64,000 bases of DNA from an uncultured Candidatus Saccharibacteria bacterium. GTDB taxonomy: Bacteria > Patescibacteriota > Minisyncoccia > Phycocordibacterales > UBA5272. Location: assembly GCA_964546555.1 (NCBI GenBank), contig CAZJJX010000002.1:16263-80262 (forward strand), read 5' to 3'. Made by a program: the position numbers and the translations under genes. The first letter of the stretch is position 1, and each line of letters begins with the position of its first letter. Positions 1,070 through 52,064 of the stretch are shown piece after piece. The notes under the pieces are model-generated. The model was not told the origin of the DNA. It did not search any database and was given only the letters and a program-made list of their open reading frames with translations.

Positions 1070-1615
1070 ATGGCTAAACAAGAATTTACAGGGGAGCGTC
1101 ATTGGTATGCAATTCACACCTATAGTGGTTACGAAAATGCTGTTTTGCGTAACTTAAAGCAGCGTATTGAGTCACTTGGTATGCAGGATAAGATTTTTGC
1201 AGTGGTTGTTCCACTTGAAAAAAAGATTAAGGTAAAAGGAACAAAGCGTGTCGAGGTAGAGGAAAAGATCTACCCAGGATATGTTCTTGTGGACATGATT
1301 GTGGATGATAATAGTTGGTATGTTGTTCGTAATACTCCTCGTGTTACAGGGTTCGTAGGAGCAGGGACAACACCAGTACCACTTTCTCAAAAAGAAATTG
1401 ATTTCCTCTTTAGTCGTATGAACACAGGAGAAGTTGAGCACGATATTTCTGTTGATGTTGGGGAACTTGTTGGAATTGTTGATGGTCCGTTTAAGGATTT
1501 TGAAGGAAAGGTTTCTGAAGTTGACAAGGCTCGTGGAAAACTCAAGGTGCTTGTGAATATGTTCGGGCGAGAGACTCCGGTAGAGCTCGACTTCCTCCAG
1601 ATTAAGAAAATTTAA
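1070..1615 (+). CDS. nusG: transcription termination/antitermination factor NusG
   Basis: NGN domain ('HWYAIHTYSGYENAV') plus C-terminal KOW motif; synteny with secE and rplK. Confidence 0.9.
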   Translation: MAKQEFTGERHWYAIHTYSGYENAVLRNLKQRIESLGMQDKIFAVVVPLEKKIKVKGTKRVEVEEKIYPGYVLVDMIVDDNSWYVVRNTPRVTGFVGAGTTPVPLSQKEIDFLFSRMNTGEVEHDISVDVGELVGIVDGPFKDFEGKVSEVDKARGKLKVLVNMFGRETPVELDFLQIKKI

Positions 1616-1630
1616 AAAGTCATAAATTAC

Positions 1631-1732
1631 TTCATCTACTTTGTCGCTAGGAGATTTTTATCAGTCGCCGTACAAATAAGTACGTCTTCTTCCAAAAATC
1701 GCTAGACTCCTCGTAGCTAAAGCAATTTCTAA
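1631..1732 (+). ncRNA. conserved structured intergenic RNA element, copy A (unnamed family; 3 copies in window)
   Basis: Shares 5' 'TTCATCTACT' and 3' 'GTAGCTAAAGCAATTTC' blocks and an internal GTAC hairpin with copies at 2245-2343 and 21973-22072. Confidence 0.45.
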
Positions 1733-1820
1733 CTTTTTAAAGAATATTTAAAGAACAAAGAAATAGTCTTGAAATCAAGACAAAAACGTGTTAGAATAAC
1801 CAAACTTTAAAGAAAATACT

Positions 1821-2234
1821 ATGGCAGCAAAGAAAATTACAAAATATGTGAAAGTTCAAATTGAAGCAGGGAAAGCTACCTCTGCTCCACCACTTGGTCC
1901 AGCGCTTGGTCAGGCGGGTGTTCAGATTGGTGATTTCGTGAACAAGTTCAACGCAGCGACACAAGGAAAGCAGGGAAGAATGTCAGTAAAGATCTATGTA
2001 TACGAAGATCGTACGTATGATTTTGTTATCAAGACTCCTACAGCAACTTCACTTGTTATGAAGGCTGCAAACGTTGCAAAAGGTAACTCAAAAGGAAAGG
2101 CTGGAACAATCTCTAAGGATAAGATTCGTGAAATTGCTGAGCTTAAGCTTGCAGATCTTACTGCGCACACTGTTGAACAGGGGATGAAGATAATCGAGGG
2201 TACTGCACGTTCTGCCGGTATCAAGGTTGTTTAA
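1821..2234 (+). CDS. rplK: 50S ribosomal protein L11
   Basis: 'PPLGPALGQAGVQIGDFVNKFN' L11 signature; follows nusG. Confidence 0.95.
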   Translation: MAAKKITKYVKVQIEAGKATSAPPLGPALGQAGVQIGDFVNKFNAATQGKQGRMSVKIYVYEDRTYDFVIKTPTATSLVMKAANVAKGNSKGKAGTISKDKIREIAELKLADLTAHTVEQGMKIIEGTARSAGIKVV

Positions 2235-2244
2235 GTAAAATCAC

Positions 2245-2343
2245 TTCATCTACTGCGTTGCACGGAATTTTTGCTCCACGCGTCGTACAATAGTACGCCT
2301 TGGTTGCAAAAACTCCGTGCGCCTTGTAGCTAAAGCAATTTTC
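2245..2343 (+). ncRNA. conserved structured intergenic RNA element, copy B
   Basis: 'TTCATCTACTGCGTT...CCACGCGTCGTAC...CTTGG...GCCTTGTAGCTAAAGCAATTTTC'. Long helix GCACGGAATTTTTGC/GCAAAAACTCCGTGC flanks a GTAC hairpin. Confidence 0.45.
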
Positions 2344-2494
2344 CATAAACAAGAATACAAAAGCAACCTCTAACGAGGTTGCTTTTGTATTTGCTAAAGG
2401 CTGCTAGATAAAAGCTAATGGCTGCATATTTGCGGTTTTTTGTTTTGCAATGTAGGATTGGCGCAGGCCCCGAAAGGGAATATGGTCATTATCG

Positions 2495-3118
2495 GTGAGG
2501 TTACAAATGAACAACGAAGAAGGGGTTCCTCTACAGTGGGTAGCAGGAACGAATCGTGTTGTACTGGGAAAGATGTTGAGTCATAAGCTTGAGCCAACCT
2601 TTGAACGCCCGTCTCGATTGGATGTTGAAGCACAACAAGTAATCATCATCTCCAAGCGATCAACGTGCATGTTTTACGAAGTTGGTGCCAGGATTTGGTA
2701 TGTTCACGGGAAGAATCACTACTTCGTATCAGATGGGTACAACGGTGCCTCAGCTGGTGATGTTGATCCTCGCATGGTTGGATGCGCGCGTGTTGTTGAT
2801 GGCCAGCTTCAGGAAGGGAAAGGGTTGTGCCGAGGCTCCCACGCAGAACTAAATGCAGTAGGTAATTGCCAAGTTGATACAAGACTCTATCCTGATGTAC
2901 GTATGATGATCACGCTCCATCCTTGTTTTGGTTGTGCCAAGCAAATCGTGAATGCTGGGATCAAATACGTCTACTACATCTGGGAGTATGGACGTGAAGA
3001 GTTTGTGACACAGTACTTGAGGGATAGAGGTATTGGTATTGAGCGATATACTTCACCATTTCTGGAGAAGTGGATTGCTCATAACAATTATGATCCGAAG
3101 AACCTTAAGCTCGGATAG
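2495..3118 (+). CDS. deoxycytidylate (dCMP) deaminase, zinc-dependent CDA fold; true start probably internal (~2573)
   Basis: 'HAELNA' (H-A-E zinc/catalytic motif) and 'PCFGCAKQI' (PCxxC) motifs; 'KRSTC' N-terminal block typical of ComEB/dCMP deaminases. Confidence 0.8.
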   Translation: MRLQMNNEEGVPLQWVAGTNRVVLGKMLSHKLEPTFERPSRLDVEAQQVIIISKRSTCMFYEVGARIWYVHGKNHYFVSDGYNGASAGDVDPRMVGCARVVDGQLQEGKGLCRGSHAELNAVGNCQVDTRLYPDVRMMITLHPCFGCAKQIVNAGIKYVYYIWEYGREEFVTQYLRDRGIGIERYTSPFLEKWIAHNNYDPKNLKLG

Positions 3119-3175
3119 GGGTTACCTCTTGGCGGTCGCATGGACCGCCTTTTCTTTTTATGTTACTTTTATACT

Positions 3176-3595
3176 ATGAATATACAAGTAAAAAAATTAT
3201 ACAAGGATGCTGTTATGCCCTCTCGTGCACATCATGATGATGCTGGCATAGACCTCTTTGCATACGGTGATTATACTCTACACCCACAGGAAATGGTTAC
3301 AATAAAAACCGGATGCGCCTTTGAAATAGATAAGGGGTATGTTGGCCTTATTTGGGATAAGTCATCGATTGGTGCAAAAGGGATAAAAACACTAGGTGGG
3401 GTAGTTGATGCTGGGTATCGAGGTGAAGTACTTGTCATGCTTCACAATCTTTCAAATGAATTACACACATTTAAACATGGTCATAAAGTCGCCCAGCTCC
3501 TTATTCAAAAAGTTGAGTTTCCTGAAATTGTAGAAGTAGGTGAATTATCTGATTCTATTCGTGGGCAAGGGGGATTTGGGAGTACGGGGAAGTAA
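3176..3595 (+). CDS. dut: dUTP diphosphatase (dUTPase)
   Basis: 'AGIDL', 'GVVDAGYRGEV', 'RGQGGFGSTG' dUTPase motifs; ORF begins at 3140 but the conserved N-terminus starts at M(3176). Confidence 0.85.
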   Translation: MNIQVKKLYKDAVMPSRAHHDDAGIDLFAYGDYTLHPQEMVTIKTGCAFEIDKGYVGLIWDKSSIGAKGIKTLGGVVDAGYRGEVLVMLHNLSNELHTFKHGHKVAQLLIQKVEFPEIVEVGELSDSIRGQGGFGSTGK

Positions 3596-3658
3596 TTTGC
3601 TATTTAGTCTTGGTTCATTTAGTATTGATGTGGGCACTTTTGGTTAATTTTTAGGAGC

Positions 3659-4186
3659 ATGATTATGAGTCAGACAATTAGTGTTATCGGTGCTTTTTCA
3701 ATAAACGGTGTTTATGGTGAAGGTAATGAAATGGTGTGGAAAATTCTTGAAGACTTTAAACACTTTAAGAAATTAACCATTGAGTGGACGGTAATTATGG
3801 GAAGACTTACACGGGAGTCATTGCCACGTAAGCCGCTCCCACATCGTGAAAATATTGTAGTATCATCAAACGCATCCTATAAAGCAGATGGTGCAATTGT
3901 ATGCACTTCTTTTGAACAAGCACTAGCTAAAGCAAGCACCAATAAAATTTTCTGCATTGGTGGCAAAGAGGTTTGGTACAAAGGGATGGATATTGCTGAC
4001 GAGGCATGGATTACTGTTGTGAAAAACGAGTATCCAATAACTCCAGGCGTGACTCGTACTGCACCAGATCTTATTAATCCACCAGCCCGCTGGCCAGGAT
4101 TTTCATTTAACGAAATGGTCGTGAATAGAGATGCTGAAGGGGATACGCCAGGTTTTAGTATTGTTCATTGGGTGAGAAAAAAATAG
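3659..4186 (+). CDS. folA: dihydrofolate reductase
   Basis: 'ISVIGA...NGV.G..N.MVW' and 'VIMGRLTRESLP.KPLP.R.NIVVS' DHFR signature blocks. Confidence 0.8.
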   Translation: MIMSQTISVIGAFSINGVYGEGNEMVWKILEDFKHFKKLTIEWTVIMGRLTRESLPRKPLPHRENIVVSSNASYKADGAIVCTSFEQALAKASTNKIFCIGGKEVWYKGMDIADEAWITVVKNEYPITPGVTRTAPDLINPPARWPGFSFNEMVVNRDAEGDTPGFSIVHWVRKK

Positions 4187-4189
4187 CAA

Positions 4190-4228
4190 GAAAAAAGCCA
4201 AACGCGCGTGCGCGTTTGGCTTTTGTTG
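4190..4228. terminator. bidirectional rho-independent terminator between convergent folA and thyA
   Basis: Perfect hairpin AGCCAAACGCGC-GTG-CGCGTTTGGCT flanked by A-run and T-run. Confidence 0.7.
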
Positions 4229-4241
4229 TACTAGGATTAAC

Positions 4242-5171
4242 CTAGAGAAGAACAGCTGAAATTTTTTCGTGACTTCTGTAACCAATAAGCTTGATATCGT
4301 CCACTGTGAAATCATCAATATTTTTTACAAGTGGGTTCAGCCAAAGCTTTGGACCTTTTAAAGGTTTTCTTGCAAGTTGTTTATTCACTTGCCGAATATG
4401 ACCTTTATTCCACTGCGGTTTTTCTTCCACATCAAGACCTGCCATATAAATATGGCAGTCCTCAAGTGTAATCACGAGTTCACCTGGCACCATATCAACA
4501 CACTGGGCTACCATGTGGCACAGAAGTGCGTAACTTGCGATATTAAAAGGAACCCCCAGGAACATATCGCACGACCTCTGATCCATTGAAATATCAAGGT
4601 ACATTTTTTTATCTCGACGCCTGCTTGGGCGCACGAAGAATTGCATCTTCATGTGACAAGGTGGAAGACACATATCATTAAGTTCTCCCGGATTCCAGGC
4701 AGTGACAATATGATATCTACTGAAAGGATCTTCTTTGATTTGCTTCATTACCTTGGCGATTTGGTCAACAGTCGAGCCATCTGGTGCACGCCAATTTCTC
4801 CATTGTGCACCATAGATGCGTCCGCAGTCTCCTTCAAACTTTGCCTTACCTTGTGAAGCAAAACGAGTTTGATCCATTGTCCAGATATTTTTTGCAGTTG
4901 CAGGCTTTTCAAGAAGTTCATTGAGACGTGCAATGGAAAGTCTCCAATCTGTTGCTTTACCTGCCTCCAGAAACCAAATAAGTTCCGCTACAACGACATT
5001 AAATGCAAGGTACTTTGTGGTTGTTGCAGGGAAACTGTGTTGCAAGTTAAACCTCATTTGTCGTGCAAATACTGCATCTGTAATGCCATTCCTTGTCTTG
5101 CGTCGCGATCCATTCTGTTTCGTGAATCGCAATGCGCGCAGATACGCCTCTTCGTTTGGGTTTAAGTTCAT
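4242..5171 (-). CDS. thyA: thymidylate synthase (ThyA, folate-dependent)
   Basis: 'QMRFNLQ', 'ELIWFL', 'LPPCHMKMQFFV' (catalytic Cys), 'DMFLGVPFNIASYALL' motifs. Confidence 0.9.
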   Translation of the reverse strand: MNLNPNEEAYLRALRFTKQNGSRRKTRNGITDAVFARQMRFNLQHSFPATTTKYLAFNVVVAELIWFLEAGKATDWRLSIARLNELLEKPATAKNIWTMDQTRFASQGKAKFEGDCGRIYGAQWRNWRAPDGSTVDQIAKVMKQIKEDPFSRYHIVTAWNPGELNDMCLPPCHMKMQFFVRPSRRRDKKMYLDISMDQRSCDMFLGVPFNIASYALLCHMVAQCVDMVPGELVITLEDCHIYMAGLDVEEKPQWNKGHIRQVNKQLARKPLKGPKLWLNPLVKNIDDFTVDDIKLIGYRSHEKISAVLL

Positions 5172-7953: not shown

Positions 7954-8286
7954 ATGAACAAATTGTCTAATGATATGGTCAAGGGTATCATCTTGGGTAT
8001 TCTTGATTCTGGCCCAAAGACTTTGGATGACTTGAATGCTGCTTATGGAGAGATCTTGAGAACTTTTGTGGAGAGGGGTGTCAATATTGATGAACTTAAA
8101 AATGTTGAGTTCCTTCCTCAAAAGAGACTTCTCAACACACTTCAGGTACTGAAACATGAAGGTTTGATTAAGGTAGAAGAAGTGATTGTTGATTCTTCGG
8201 TCACGTTCAAAGATGGTTGCAACGTTTCTGATTTAAATTTTGTAGTTACTTTCTATAGGCCTAGCCTGGGAGTCGATTCTTTCTGA
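7954..8286 (+). CDS. hypothetical protein (110 aa)
   Basis: ORF with upstream GAGG; no recognisable motif. Confidence 0.4.
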   Translation: MNKLSNDMVKGIILGILDSGPKTLDDLNAAYGEILRTFVERGVNIDELKNVEFLPQKRLLNTLQVLKHEGLIKVEEVIVDSSVTFKDGCNVSDLNFVVTFYRPSLGVDSF

Positions 8287-21496: not shown

Positions 21497-21958
21497 ATGT
21501 ATCTTAACAAAGTATTTCTATTCGGTAACTTAACTCGTGACCCAGAGCAAAAGTCACTTCCAAACGGAACTGCAGTCACGAACTTCTCGCTTGCAACTAA
21601 TCGTACCTATAAAGATGCAAATGGCGCACGTCAAGAGCAGGTAGAGTATCACAACATTGTTGTCTTTGGTCGCCAAGCAGAAACAAGTGCCCAGTATCTA
21701 AAGAAGGGTCAGGGTGTTATGATCGAAGGAAGAATATCAACTCGTTCATGGGATGACAAAACAACTGGAGAAAAAAAGTACCGAACAGAGATTATTGCTG
21801 ATGCTGTACAGTTCGGGCCAAAGTCAGGAGGGGCTCCTTCTGCTGAAGGGTTCACAGGTAATCCTGGGCCAACAAGTCAAAAGGCAACACCAGCAACTGA
21901 TCTCGATACGATTGATTATGGAGATGCTAATGTTAACCTCGACGACATCCCATTTTAA
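21497..21958 (+). CDS. ssb: single-stranded DNA-binding protein
   Basis: OB fold 'NKVFLFGNLTRDPE', C-terminal acidic tail ending 'DDIPF'. Confidence 0.9.
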   Translation: MYLNKVFLFGNLTRDPEQKSLPNGTAVTNFSLATNRTYKDANGARQEQVEYHNIVVFGRQAETSAQYLKKGQGVMIEGRISTRSWDDKTTGEKKYRTEIIADAVQFGPKSGGAPSAEGFTGNPGPTSQKATPATDLDTIDYGDANVNLDDIPF

Positions 21959-21972
21959 ACAGACAAAATTAT

Positions 21973-22072
21973 TTCATTTACTGCGTTACTTGAAATTTTT
22001 CTTCCACGCGTCGTACTAGGTGTACGACTTGGTCAGAAAAATTTCAAGTGCCTTGTATCTAAAACAATTTTC
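21973..22072 (+). ncRNA. conserved structured intergenic RNA element, copy C
   Basis: 'TTCATTTACTGCGTT...CCACGCGTCGTAC...CTTGG...GCCTTGTATCTAAAACAATTTTC'. Helix ACTTGAAATTTTT/AAAAATTTCAAGT covaries with copy B. Confidence 0.45.
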
Positions 22073-22186
22073 TCAGTTTAAAACCGTTTCACTTGCTTAA
22101 GAAATAAAATTATTAAATTATTAATATGAAGATAAAGAAAAAAGAATTCTAACTACATTCTATTCTCTACCTTCCACACTCCACAT

Positions 22187-22390
22187 ATGAAAAAACAAGA
22201 TCACTTTAATGCTAACAACATAAAGTTCATTGACTACAAGGACACAGAAATCCTCGTTAAGTTTTTGAACCCACACGCTCGTATTCTTAATCGCCGTAAG
22301 ACCGGTCTTACAGCAAAGAATCAGCGAGCACTTGCTAACGCTGTAAAGCGTGCACGTTTTATGGGGCTTCTTCCCTATGTTGCACATTAG
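22187..22390 (+). CDS. rpsR: 30S ribosomal protein S18
   Basis: '[10 protein letters not shown].....[26 protein letters not shown]'. Confidence 0.9.
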
Positions 22391-23640: not shown

Positions 23641-23715
23641 TACGTTGACCTTTGGCAAAATCAAATTTTTTGGTGGTATGGATATATTATACGTGAAAGT
23701 AATTACTCGTTAAGC
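23641..23715 (+). promoter_or_regulatory. ~75-bp conserved upstream element, copy 1 (candidate promoter/operator)
   Basis: 'TTGACCTTTGGCAAAATCAAATTTTTTGGTGGTATGGATATATTATACG...AGTAATTACTCGTTA' ~90% identical to 24588-24665. Confidence 0.4.
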
Positions 23716-24587: not shown

Positions 24588-24665
24588 AGTTTGCCTTTGG
24601 CAAAATCAAAGTTTTTTGGTAGTATGGATATATTATACGTAAACAGTAATTACTCGTTAGTTGTC
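24588..24665 (+). promoter_or_regulatory. ~75-bp conserved upstream element, copy 2 (immediately upstream of ndk)
   Basis: 'TTTGCCTTTGGCAAAATCAAAGTTTTTTGGTAGTATGGATATATTATACG...AGTAATTACTCGTTA'. Confidence 0.4.
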
Positions 24666-34669: not shown

Positions 34670-34790
34670 AGAGATAACAGATAACAGACTTTAAGACCAT
34701 TACGCATTCAGAAAATACAGAGTTGTAACCGAAGGTCACAACTCTGTATTTTTGTAGTCTGATGTCTGAAAGCGTAGCGGTCTGATTGTC
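34670..34790. repeat. MITE-like repeat element copy a (terminal 'CAGATAACAGAC'/'AGCGTAGCGGTCTGAT' ends, central CGAAGG hairpin terminator 34712-34754)
   Basis: 'AATACAGAGTTGT-AACCGAAGGTC-ACAACTCTGTATT' + TTTTT, followed by 'TCTGAAAGCGTAGCGGTCTGAT' motif shared with 35583, 35669 and 52035. Confidence 0.5.
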
Positions 34791-34827
34791 TACAGGTCGC
34801 ACCAAGTTCTCCTGCTATACTATTTCC

Positions 34828-35580: not shown

Positions 35581-35695
35581 ACAGACCGCTACGCTAACAG
35601 ATAGTAGACTAATTTAAAGCGCGACCTTCGGTCGCGCTTTAAATGTGTAGTAAGTTGTATTGTCCGACTATCTGTTAGCGTAGCGGTCTGATAGT
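35581..35695. repeat. MITE-like repeat element copy b/c: 25-bp inverted repeats around a UUCG-tetraloop GC hairpin, between convergent genes
   Basis: 'ACAGACCGCTACGCTAACAGATAGT' ... 'TTAAAGCGCGACC-TTCG-GGTCGCGCTTTAA' ... 'ACTATCTGTTAGCGTAGCGGTCTGAT'. Confidence 0.55.
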
Positions 35696-35708
35696 CAGGT
35701 GTCTGTAT

Positions 35709-48055: not shown

Positions 48056-48128
48056 GCATCCATAGCTCAGTTGGTAGAGCCGTCGTCTTATACACGACTG
48101 GTCCCTGGTTCGAGTCCAGGTGGATGCA
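48056..48128 (+). tRNA. tRNA-Ile, anticodon UAU (reads AUA); CCA not encoded
   Basis: Cloverleaf by hand: acceptor GCATCCA/TGGATGC, D GCTC/GAGC, anticodon stem GTCGT/ACGAC with loop CTTATAC (U33, anticodon TAT, A37), T arm CCTGG-TTCGAGT-CCAGG, discriminator A. Confidence 0.75.
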
Positions 48129-48173
48129 CTTTGGGGATAAGGTGCGAATGAAATCAAAATACGATGTAGTATA
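48117..48173 (+). repeat. 57-bp direct repeat, copy 1 (includes tRNA 3' end)
   Basis: 'CAGGTGGATGCACTTTGGGGATAAGGTGCGAATGAAATCAAAATACGATGTAGTATA'. Confidence 0.8.
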
Positions 48174-48226
48174 CACGACTGATTCTTTGTTCTCGTTTTT
48201 ATGGCCAAGCCATGAATCTGCTGATT

Positions 48227-48283
48227 CAGGTGGATGCACTTTGGGGATAAGGTACGAATGAAATCAATTTACGATGAAGTATA
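48227..48283 (+). repeat. 57-bp direct repeat, copy 2 (degenerate copy of tRNA 3' half + flank)
   Basis: 'CAGGTGGATGCACTTTGGGGATAAGGTACGAATGAAATCAATTTACGATGAAGTATA'; preceded by 'TATACACGACTG' echoing the tRNA anticodon arm. Confidence 0.8.
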
Positions 48284-48446
48284 AATGACCAACTTGAGTC
48301 ATCTGTTGATTTTGTAATACGTAATGGTATTTGTGTTGTAATTTTTTATATCCGCTTTACAAGCATGCTTTCAAGGAGTAGCATAGAGAGAGTGCTTCTT
48401 AAAAAGAGAAGTGCTGATCTCTAATCTACAACTAAGGAGATTCAGG

Positions 48447-51948: not shown

Positions 51949-52064
51949 ATCGCTACCTGTTAGTTGTCAGTTAAATACAATACACGCTACGCGAAGGCTT
52001 TGCCTTCGCGTAATATCCTCTAGTATTTGTCTGTTATCTGTTAGCGTAGCGGTCTGTTTGTCTG
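51949..52064. repeat. MITE-like repeat element copy d (GC hairpin CGCGAAGG-CTTTG-CCTTCGCG + 'TATCTGTTAGCGTAGCGGTCTG')
   Basis: Shares 20-nt motif with copies at 34764, 35583(rc), 35669. Confidence 0.45.

Follow-up and report, generated by a model that had tools for sequence, protein, structure and literature searches.

Sense-oriented palindromic repeats at gene 3' ends and within 23S rRNA in a clade of Paceibacteria

Introduction

Three intergenic segments in a 64,000-nucleotide stretch of Patescibacteriota DNA (hereafter, the window) share conserved blocks at both ends and in the middle, and carry between these blocks a helix whose sequence changes from copy to copy. An initial annotation, made from the letters of the window, read them as a functional RNA structure of about 100 nt rather than a recently copied repeat and, given their position in ribosomal-protein operons, as a possible autoregulatory leader. 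The locus raises the question of what such an element is: an RNA selected by its host, a DNA repeat that has spread by copying, or something of both. CPR/Patescibacteria have tiny, streamlined genomes, for which almost no non-coding or repeat biology has been described.

Results

Three copies in the window, each trailing a gene

The three copies, A, B and C, are present where they had been annotated (Table 1). Their common 3' block, the 16-nt sequence GTAKCTAAARCAATTT, occurs exactly three times in the 64 kb, for 0.39 expected, and none of 100 shuffles reached three. The 5' and central blocks first quoted for all three describe B and C correctly; copy A reads TTCATCTACTTTGTC and CAGTCGCCGTAC instead. 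The length had been underestimated: on both sides, pairing extends through AAAATYAY/RCAATTTT and then 10-12 bp more, the stop codon of the upstream gene among them, so that the unit measures about 130 nt. In copy A these flanks pair as TTTAAAAAGTCA / TAACTTTTTAAA. Each copy folds as one rod on both strands, and the helices of B and C, different in sequence, do both pair as proposed, with RNA z-scores of -5.0 and -6.4, respectively, on the strand read in the annotation (copy A is weaker, -1.7). A covariance-model search of the window with filters off found no fourth copy.

Table 1. Coordinates of the three hairpin units and of neighbouring features, in nucleotides of the window.
Feature	Position	Strand	Details	Basis
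Copy A, full hairpin unit	1611-1741	+ (flanking-gene sense)	left arm 1611-1622, core 1623-1729, right arm 1730-1741	covariance model R1, 120.5 bits
nusG stop codon TAA, within copy A left arm	1613-1615	+	ORF 1070-1615	Pfam NusG+KOW
Sigma-70-like promoter, between copy A and rplK	1769-1797	+	TTGAAA-17-TAGAAT; consensus match only	promoter scan, 10/12 matches
Copy B, full hairpin unit	2225-2354	+	left arm 2225-2236, core 2237-2342, right arm 2343-2354	covariance model R1, 109.8 bits
rplK stop codon TAA, within copy B left arm	2232-2234	+	rplK = ORF 1821-2234	Pfam L11
Canonical intrinsic terminator hairpin, directly 3' of copy B	2354-2391	+		terminator scan
Copy C, full hairpin unit	21953-22083	+	left arm 21953-21964, core 21965-22071, right arm 22072-22083	covariance model R1, 119.3 bits
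ssb stop codon TAA, within copy C left arm	21956-21958	+	ssb = ORF 21497-21958	
rpsR, 3' of copy C	22187-22390	+		ORF list/Pfam

Pfam assignments bear out the gene neighbourhoods that had been claimed: secE-nusG-A-rplK-B, followed by a dCMP-deaminase-like gene and a dUTPase, with rplA missing, and rpsF-ssb-C-rpsR. An exact look-up of the L11 protein returned a single 2-kb Logan contig (SRR12487045), identical to the window. Because copy A is separated from rplK by a promoter-like site, we assigned A to the 3' end of nusG and not to an rplK leader. Copy B is abutted by a terminator, which a second terminator scan placed 5 nt past the unit (AAAGCAACCTCTAACGAGGTTGCTTTTGTATTT); B is therefore rplK 3' UTR, and an antisense promoter would have no space there.

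A family so far found in one clade

An exact-pattern scan of one genome per species gave 72 loci, of which 68, in 41 MAGs, were true copies; four longer matches in Clostridiaceae and Flavobacterium were attributed to chance and dropped. Metagenome contigs contributed 55 further loci. Covariance model R1, run on the fetched loci, recovered 88 + 58 copies, which reduce to 130 distinct sequences from 41 species-representative Paceibacteria/Parcubacteria MAGs and 55 metagenome contigs. The carrier MAGs are labelled Paceibacterota, Nomura-, Kaiser- or Yonathbacteria, and the few carriers labelled Saccharibacteria or Gracilibacteria are probably mislabelled. Extra copies turned up about once per 32 kb within loci fetched for another copy, and once per 21 kb in the window; at such densities, a genome of ~0.8 Mb would hold ~25-40 copies, an estimated ~0.5% of its sequence.

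The family was absent from viral contigs and from phage and plasmid collections. None of the 4227 Rfam families, r-protein leaders included, matched the element at the gathering threshold, where the window gave a tmRNA and tRNA only, and a permissive scan of positions 1560-2420 (E ≤ 10) returned sub-threshold chance matches only. Literature searches on Parcubacteria and Patescibacteria retrieved no description of the element. We consider the family previously uncatalogued and, so far, found in one Paceibacteria (Parcubacteria) clade only. No transposase or other mobilising enzyme was identified in the readable 8-14-kb loci and the one 64-kb window, in which the ORFs checked are housekeeping genes; nor was any RAYT, reverse transcriptase or integrase found in the visible parts of the genomes.

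A conserved rod with covarying helices

The unit is a single rod of ~130 nt. On the sense strand its base is a closing helix of 10-12 bp, specific to each locus and lying outside the core, which measures ~106-108 nt and is bounded by AAAAT and ATTTT. Above this helix, AAAATYAYTTCATCTAC pairs with GTAKCTAAARCAATTTT with mismatches at fixed positions, the two forming an imperfect terminal inverted repeat of 17 nt that is conserved in all copies. Next upward come a conserved internal loop (TTTGTC / TCCTC and variants), at the foot of which CTAC/GTAG (GTAK) is conserved, a hypervariable helix of ~15 bp whose sequence is free, a small internal loop and, at the apex, a 5-bp stem CGTAC/GTACG closed by a variable loop. 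The lower stem, measured from the base up to where the conserved mismatches first cluster, counts ~21-22 bp. Throughout the 41 species, every copy keeps the sequence blocks and the positions of the mismatches.

On a plain MAFFT alignment, RNAalifold recovered the apical 5-bp stem only, because the variable helix cannot be aligned by sequence; the structure was obtained instead by a vote over single-sequence folds, followed by covariance-model re-alignment. In this alignment of 80 copies, which is fitted to the model and so inflates the pairing figures somewhat, standard pairs occupy 89.3% of cells, versus 67.6% in column shuffles (0/500 reached as much), both partners have changed in 43 of 52 pairs, and sliding the partners by 1-3 columns lowers pairing to 39-45%. 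Covariation in the terminal helix, with C-G, U-A, G-C and A-U all occurring at one pair, was already seen in the plain MAFFT alignment. The many homologues in genomes and metagenomes, the covariation supported against column shuffles and the failure of any Rfam family to match, at gathering or permissive thresholds, therefore leave the initial annotation of a structured family in place. Compensatory change alone is nevertheless no proof of selection on RNA, since intrastrand templated correction can also yield it in DNA palindromes.

Most copies sit on stop codons, in the sense orientation

In 112 of the 130 distinct copies (86%), a long same-strand ORF lies upstream and its stop codon ends between model positions -4 and +20, that is, within the closing helix or on the A's that open the core. 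Among the first 71 copies, the TTCAT block begins 5-21 nt past the stop of a same-strand ORF in about 60, and a much wider gap, as a rule 50-130 nt, separates the copies from the next gene. The genes upstream, named by eye from sequence (by Pfam for those of the window), are diverse: nusG, rplK, ssb, rpsR, ychF, a KH-domain protein gene, ribonucleotide reductase beta, rpsO, rpsG, rplE, rpsJ, rpsI, secY, secF, efp, groEL, dnaJ, dnaN, mreB, atpC, pheS, lysS and sodA. The family thereby marks the 3' ends of core genes of translation, replication, chaperone function and cell shape. TGA is never the adjacent stop codon (0/112, versus 9.5% of other long ORFs, in a sample whose size is inflated by orthology). 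Within the helix the stop codon has no fixed register, falling anywhere from position 1 to 16, which rules out a coding role or a read-through peptide.

Between co-directional genes lie 43 of 70 copies. A canonical sense terminator follows within 110 nt in at least 17 of 85 copies, versus 0 of 88 coding controls, so that these copies are 3'-UTR sequence. A handful of copies depart from the rule: one is upstream of a divergent rpsU (L016), one follows a terminator (L033), two follow an ncRNA-like region (L022, L105), and in two others a GAPDH ORF continues 15 codons into the core (L002, L021). Orientation tracks the local gene, even in a convergent gene pair (L061), and not the direction of replication. 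Being always co-oriented with the transcript, the copies should form a long hairpin in the RNA, be it a 3' UTR or rRNA.

Copies inside 23S rRNA

Five loci (L005, L042, L064, L067 and L070) were verified to lie in a 23S rRNA gene, in the rRNA sense orientation. In L005 the element is part of a 276-nt insertion at the tip of a helix at model ~1750-1775 (~1763), just upstream of GACUGUUUACCAAAAACACAG; going by E. coli numbering, we take this helix to be helix 63 (H63). The same rRNA flank borders 4-5 further metagenomic copies, making 9-10 in all, and the 23S copies are among the best-scoring of the family. With the 23S intervening sequences (IVSs) that RNase III excises these insertions share the form of an ORF-less stem-loop at the tip of a 23S helix, in sense orientation in the five verified copies, and a patchy distribution. 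They differ in site, the classical IVS sites being helices 25 and 45, and the family as a whole differs in residing mostly in mRNA 3' UTRs. A survey of rRNA insertions in CPR reported many short insertions without intron or ORF, some of which were suggested to be RNase III-type IVSs, and does not describe the element itself (PMC11270868).

Cores copied between sites, and sites with and without the element

Within the family, some cores at non-orthologous sites are nearly identical: 92% between the mreB, dnaJ and ychF sites, 93% between the KH-protein and pheS sites of one MAG, and 95% between the rpsR and ssb sites. The similarity breaks off precisely at AAAAT on one side and ATTTT on the other; beyond them, the 12-nt arms and the outer flanks are at background (33-75%). 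Between relatives, neighbouring proteins are 82-97% identical, yet the presence of the element differs. The rpsR site is filled in L047, L048 and L056 and empty in the window, L040, L065, L052, L017 and L023; the mreB site is filled in L004 and empty in L013. Empty sites were also seen at rplK (L035), rpsI (L014) and ssb (L047, L056). At empty orthologous sites a terminator directly follows the stop codon, and there is no palindrome. By these patterns the family is, or was, mobile, its core having been copied to new sites. The original opposition of a functional RNA to a copied repeat is accordingly not supported: a homologous family with a conserved hairpin and much compensatory change is there, but near-identical cores at unrelated sites, sharp edges and presence/absence among relatives mark it as a copied repeat.

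An inverted copy of the target at the base of the hairpin

In every copy, the 10-12 nt on either side of the core are reverse complements of each other, the helix length having its mode at 10-11 bp. Flank complementarity has a mean score of 7.6, versus 2.0 (maximum 2.4) after flanks were re-paired between loci. The repeats are inverted, not direct, as can be read from non-palindromic examples (L002, L004, L007, L037, L053). The upstream arm is native coding sequence, for the C-termini of mreB, rpsR and dnaJ are unchanged in empty orthologues; the downstream arm is therefore the derived one, an inverted copy of upstream DNA, usually of the last codons and stop codon of a housekeeping gene. For paralogues with a core difference of 5-8%, some nine substitutions would be needed to make the arms complementary, which suggests that the arm was templated rather than built by point mutation.

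In the orthologous series at RNR, the KH-protein gene and ychF, compensatory changes preserve the pairing of the flanks. The arm might alternatively stem from ongoing quasi-palindrome correction, which would also mimic 'compensatory' change. The sole clean filled/empty pair at the nucleotide level (L014/L044), with an AT-rich flank identical at ~84%, fits one or both arms being new. Flanks that were pre-existing terminator stems, with the core dropped into their loop, were ruled out: the arms are AT-rich, no T-run comes after, and empty sites have no palindrome. To our knowledge, no transposition mechanism yields an inverted target duplication.

Pairing favours the antisense strand

The antisense RNA fold is the more stable one in 71 of 71 copies, with a mean of -35.9 versus -22.0 kcal/mol for the sense fold; as DNA, the antisense strands of the three window copies are more stable by 5.6-7.9 kcal/mol. 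Consensus pairs comprise 250 A·C cells (G·U on the antisense strand) versus 41 G·T, and the covariance-model alignment has 315 antisense and 65 sense wobble cells. A first strand-neutral, arm-against-arm alignment was noisy, and counting was restricted to isolated 1x1 mismatches with Watson-Crick neighbours; these again lean to antisense wobble, 24 vs 9 in the flank and 14 vs 5 in the variable helix. Variable columns interchange antisense G·U, G-C and A-U (e.g. 32/28/9), sense G·U being nearly absent: over four columns, antisense G·U was counted 123 times and sense G·U twice. The conserved loops read as purine-rich tandem G·A/A·G and G·A/A·A on the antisense strand, and as pyrimidine-pyrimidine on the sense strand.

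A mutational origin of the A·C excess was ruled out by reasoning: the sense strand is G-rich, and C-to-T bias acting on it would push the other way. At 67 of 71 loci the sense strand has a positive GC skew, which makes the antisense strand the leading-strand template, rarely single-stranded. A search for an antisense promoter at a fixed downstream distance returned only the complement of the stop-codon signal. Antisense transcription of the copies is implausible, given the terminator directly against B, the lack of a promoter for it at the rRNA copies and the absence of any conserved upstream signal. The asymmetry might arise from a strand-specific single-stranded DNA step in mobilisation, from survival only of those insertions whose transcript carries the weaker strand, or from an unrecognised RNA feature.

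Discussion

On balance, we favour reading A, B and C as non-autonomous mobile palindromic repeats of the MITE/REPIN/ERIC/Correia/Rickettsia palindromic element class, members of an uncatalogued family that is co-transcribed in the sense orientation. Copies persist almost exclusively where an ORF or transcription unit ends, and in 23S rRNA at the variable helix 63. Cores copied with sharp edges, filled and empty sites among close relatives, and an arm that appears to be templated from the target all fit this reading. Other observations weigh on the other side, the absence of a mobilising enzyme from the loci and window read among them. Conservation of the blocks over 41 species, together with the upkeep of flank pairing, is explained by host-level selection no less well than by selfish turnover; and the antisense-biased mismatches, which a role in the sense transcript does not predict, count against our explanation.

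If the repeats do move, insertion could end in a snap-back, that is, a self-primed extension of a sense-strand 3' end that freshly carries the hairpin core. We purely infer this step from the new arm, which is always the sense-strand 3' arm and spans about one helical turn. Where A-runs follow stop codons or precede terminators, they may provide the AAAAT end of the core with microhomology. Once in the transcript, the hairpin is most likely passive or co-opted, as a barrier to 3' exonucleases or as an RNase III (IVS-like) processing site.

The alternative that survives best, possible although in our view unlikely, makes the element a host-selected cis-acting RNA hairpin, placed at the stops of ~25-40 housekeeping mRNAs per genome and in 23S helix 63, its duplication being incidental. 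The hairpin would be recognised by a single trans-acting factor, be it RNase III (as in 23S IVSs) or a dedicated RNA-binding protein, and would set the stability or processing of mRNA 3' ends. This might be coupled to the ribosome at termination, which has to open the base of the helix. Blocks and mismatch positions kept in every copy, compensatory upkeep of the flank at RNR, KH-protein and ychF orthologues, a stop codon in the helix base of most copies and the lack of TGA at the adjacent stops are what such a module would be expected to leave. RNase III substrates have stems of ~21-22 bp, the size of the lower stem. The 23S helix-tip site likewise resembles that of IVSs excised by RNase III, and short CPR insertions have been proposed to be IVS-like (PMC11270868). 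Against a module of this kind, the register of the stop codon varies, the copies L016 and L033 and those after ncRNA have no ORF end, the GAPDH ORFs of L002 and L021 enter the core, many close relatives lack the element at the same gene, and wobble and G·A patterns favour the strand that is not transcribed.

That last pattern also speaks for a further reading, which we hold to be improbable, in which the antisense strand is the functional molecule: either a small antisense RNA gene, or an ssDNA or cDNA hairpin that a strand-specific enzyme recognises. The enzyme could be a RAYT/HUH-type transposase, on the model of REP/REPIN, or a recombinase like the one that acts on the bottom strands of integron attC. 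The greater antisense stability in all 71 copies compared as RNA, and in the three window copies as DNA, the G·U, G-C and A-U exchanges at variable positions, the antisense-leaning isolated mismatches of flank and variable helix, and tandem G·A/A·G and G·A/A·A loops, typical of folded nucleic acids, would all be accounted for. The surroundings of the copies speak otherwise. The terminator against copy B leaves an antisense promoter no space, no promoter-like signal was found downstream at a fixed distance, and the best-scoring copies lie within 23S rRNA. Orientation follows the local gene and not replication, the antisense strand is rarely single-stranded if it is the leading-strand template, and none of the candidate enzymes was seen in the visible parts of the genomes.

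Unusual intrinsic terminators are a very improbable explanation. A long hairpin with an ATTTT end at gene ends invites it, but an intrinsic terminator ends the transcript with a GC-rich stem and a U-tract, whereas the stem beside the T-run of the element is AT-rich and mismatched on the sense strand, more than half of the copies scored are flanked by co-directional genes, a separate canonical terminator follows at least 17 of 85 copies, and some lie within 23S rRNA. To the ribosomal-protein autoregulatory leaders put first in the initial annotation we give next to no credence: the three window copies do lie in r-protein gene clusters, but the elements come after genes and not before, a promoter-like site separates copy A from rplK, the genes upstream are mostly not r-protein genes (ychF, mreB, groEL, RNR, dnaN and secY among them), no Rfam leader matched, and some copies are inside 23S rRNA.

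It is doubtful, though worth stating, that the family points to either (a) a new insertion mechanism, by a hairpin on the sense 3' end and snap-back, or (b) a clade-wide post-transcriptional system of CPR. Under (a), the hairpin would be joined to the 3' end of the sense strand, in nascent DNA or possibly in the abundant transcript, and snap-back would write an inverted target copy of about one turn; sense-only orientation, the preference for ORF or transcription-unit ends and an exposed rRNA loop, and the inverted flank would then have one cause. Under (b), the same protein-binding hairpin would stand on the ribosome, at 23S helix 63, and on ~30 housekeeping mRNA 3' ends, and translation termination would be coupled to mRNA fate. 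Selfish DNA of this sort, with its inverted target copy, would hint at an undescribed route of DNA insertion; a host-selected family would represent a 3'-end RNA module that is new and global, in a lineage that cannot be cultured. Covariation in a genomic palindrome should not by itself be equated with a functional RNA on the annotated strand.

Several known systems share part of these features. Stop-codon embedding, the copy in 23S helix 63, the inverted target copy and the antisense-biased pairing are four traits unusual for transcribed palindromic repeats. ERIC of enterobacteria, Correia elements of Neisseria and Rickettsia palindromic elements are likewise imperfect palindromes, 100-150 bp in length and with inverted repeats at their ends, that are co-transcribed, exert orientation-dependent effects on RNA, can touch ORF ends or RNA genes and are present or absent among relatives; theirs are direct target duplications (e.g. 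TA), unlike the inverted flanks of 10-12 bp described here, and they show neither the near-absolute sense orientation nor the placement on stop codons. Of the features by which MITEs are recognised, the family has the terminal inverted repeats, near-identical copies at non-homologous sites and presence/absence, and it lacks a direct target-site duplication of fixed length.

Integron attC sites also form an imperfect palindrome that starts from the upstream ORF stop, co-oriented with the ORF, and it is the complement of the mRNA that folds into their active form. The ends of the element are AAAAT.../...ATTTT, however, without RYYYAAC/GTTRRRY core sites, and its neighbours are syntenic housekeeping genes and rRNA rather than cassettes, with no arrays and no intI nearby.

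In E. coli, REP elements reportedly lie within 15 nt of stop codons, as Liang, Rudd and Deutscher are said to have found in 2015, and arfA mRNA carries an RNase III hairpin. The sequences of these are unrelated to ours, and their effects were established by experiment; they resemble the element as stable hairpins that start from, or extend over, an ORF end and meet terminating ribosomes or RNase III.

REPINs and REP-RAYT systems of Pseudomonas and E. coli differ in copy number, hundreds per genome for REPINs versus ~25-40 here. They differ also in the central helix, which is wholly different between paralogues of our family within one genome, and in the traits that set the element apart: its base overlapping the stop codon, the inverted flank copy, the copies in 23S rRNA and, in the visible parts of the genomes, the lack of a RAYT. 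Otherwise, both are extragenic, non-coding, multi-copy hairpin repeats of ~100 nt, better conserved at their ends than in the middle and often found where genes end, with compensatory upkeep of the hairpin, possibly strand-specific folding and long vertical persistence. The strand asymmetry of the element and the CTAC/GTAG (GTAK) at the foot of its internal loop resemble the single-strand folding of REP and the GTAG conserved beside its stem.

Stop codons at the hairpin base

In 112 of the 130 distinct copies of the hairpin element, the stop codon of a long sense ORF ends at model position -4 to +20. Across all loci, these stop codons, set within the base of the hairpin, are TAA (84) or TAG (28) and never TGA (0/112), against 9.5% TGA in the remaining long ORFs from those loci. 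High expression or an A-rich target may explain the absence of TGA, as may a link to release-factor choice.

Some copies depart from this placement. In two loci, L002 and L021, a GAPDH-like ORF has no stop before the element and extends 15 codons into the conserved core (...EHVIKVGQKITSSTLSQ*), so that part of the repeat is translated. In two others, L022 and L105, the element comes after a non-coding stretch (...CCTGTTAAGTTCAGCGCCGRCCATTTTT) that both loci share and that is possibly a small RNA gene; in L022, a TATAAT-like box lies before the stretch.

A divergent subfamily, found in four loci, retains the architecture and the stop-codon position, and differs in its terminal helix (...GGCGAACTTC / GAAYTTCATCC...). 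The search pattern used therefore covers only part of the superfamily.

Coordinates of features associated with the element or found in the window
Feature	Location	Remarks
GAPDH-like ORF running into element	L002 about 1126-1180; L021 about 4100-4166	sense strand of element
Non-coding stretch upstream of element	L022 about 4205-4400; L105 about 8022-8100	sense strand
Divergent element subfamily	L004 5484-5611; L042 3488-3617; L016 1718-1843 and 7826-7950; L062 2912-3040	
Second short repeat family	window 34757-34791, 35663-35697, 52029-52063	GTCTGNTNTCTGNNAGCGTAGCGGTCTGNTNGTCT; three copies
tRNA	window 48056-48128	
63-nt direct repeat	window 48117-48179 and 48227-48289	90% identical
53-nt direct repeat	window 23645-23697 and 24591-24643	79% identical; TTGACCTTTGGCAAAATCAAA...TATGGATATATTATACGT

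Other repeats and gene order in the window

Stretches rich in GCAGAC/GTCTG, similar to the second short repeat family, are present 3' of rpsR and ssb in two fetched loci (L047 and L065), and also beside the insertion site of the filled/empty pair L014/L044.

Two direct repeats were also found. The first copy of the 63-nt repeat starts within the 3' end of a tRNA gene, and the pair could be an attachment-site duplication remaining from an integrated element; the ORFs checked nearby encode RecG, a CARDB-domain protein, and others without assignment. The copies of the 53-nt repeat lie 5' of two consecutive ORFs, and look like a duplicated promoter region.

Downstream of rplK (window 2235-3600), the next gene is not rplA, encoding L1; a terminator, a dCMP-deaminase-like gene and a dUTPase gene are found there. 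Loss of L1 has been reported for some Parcubacteria, and the gene order in the window is consistent with such a loss.
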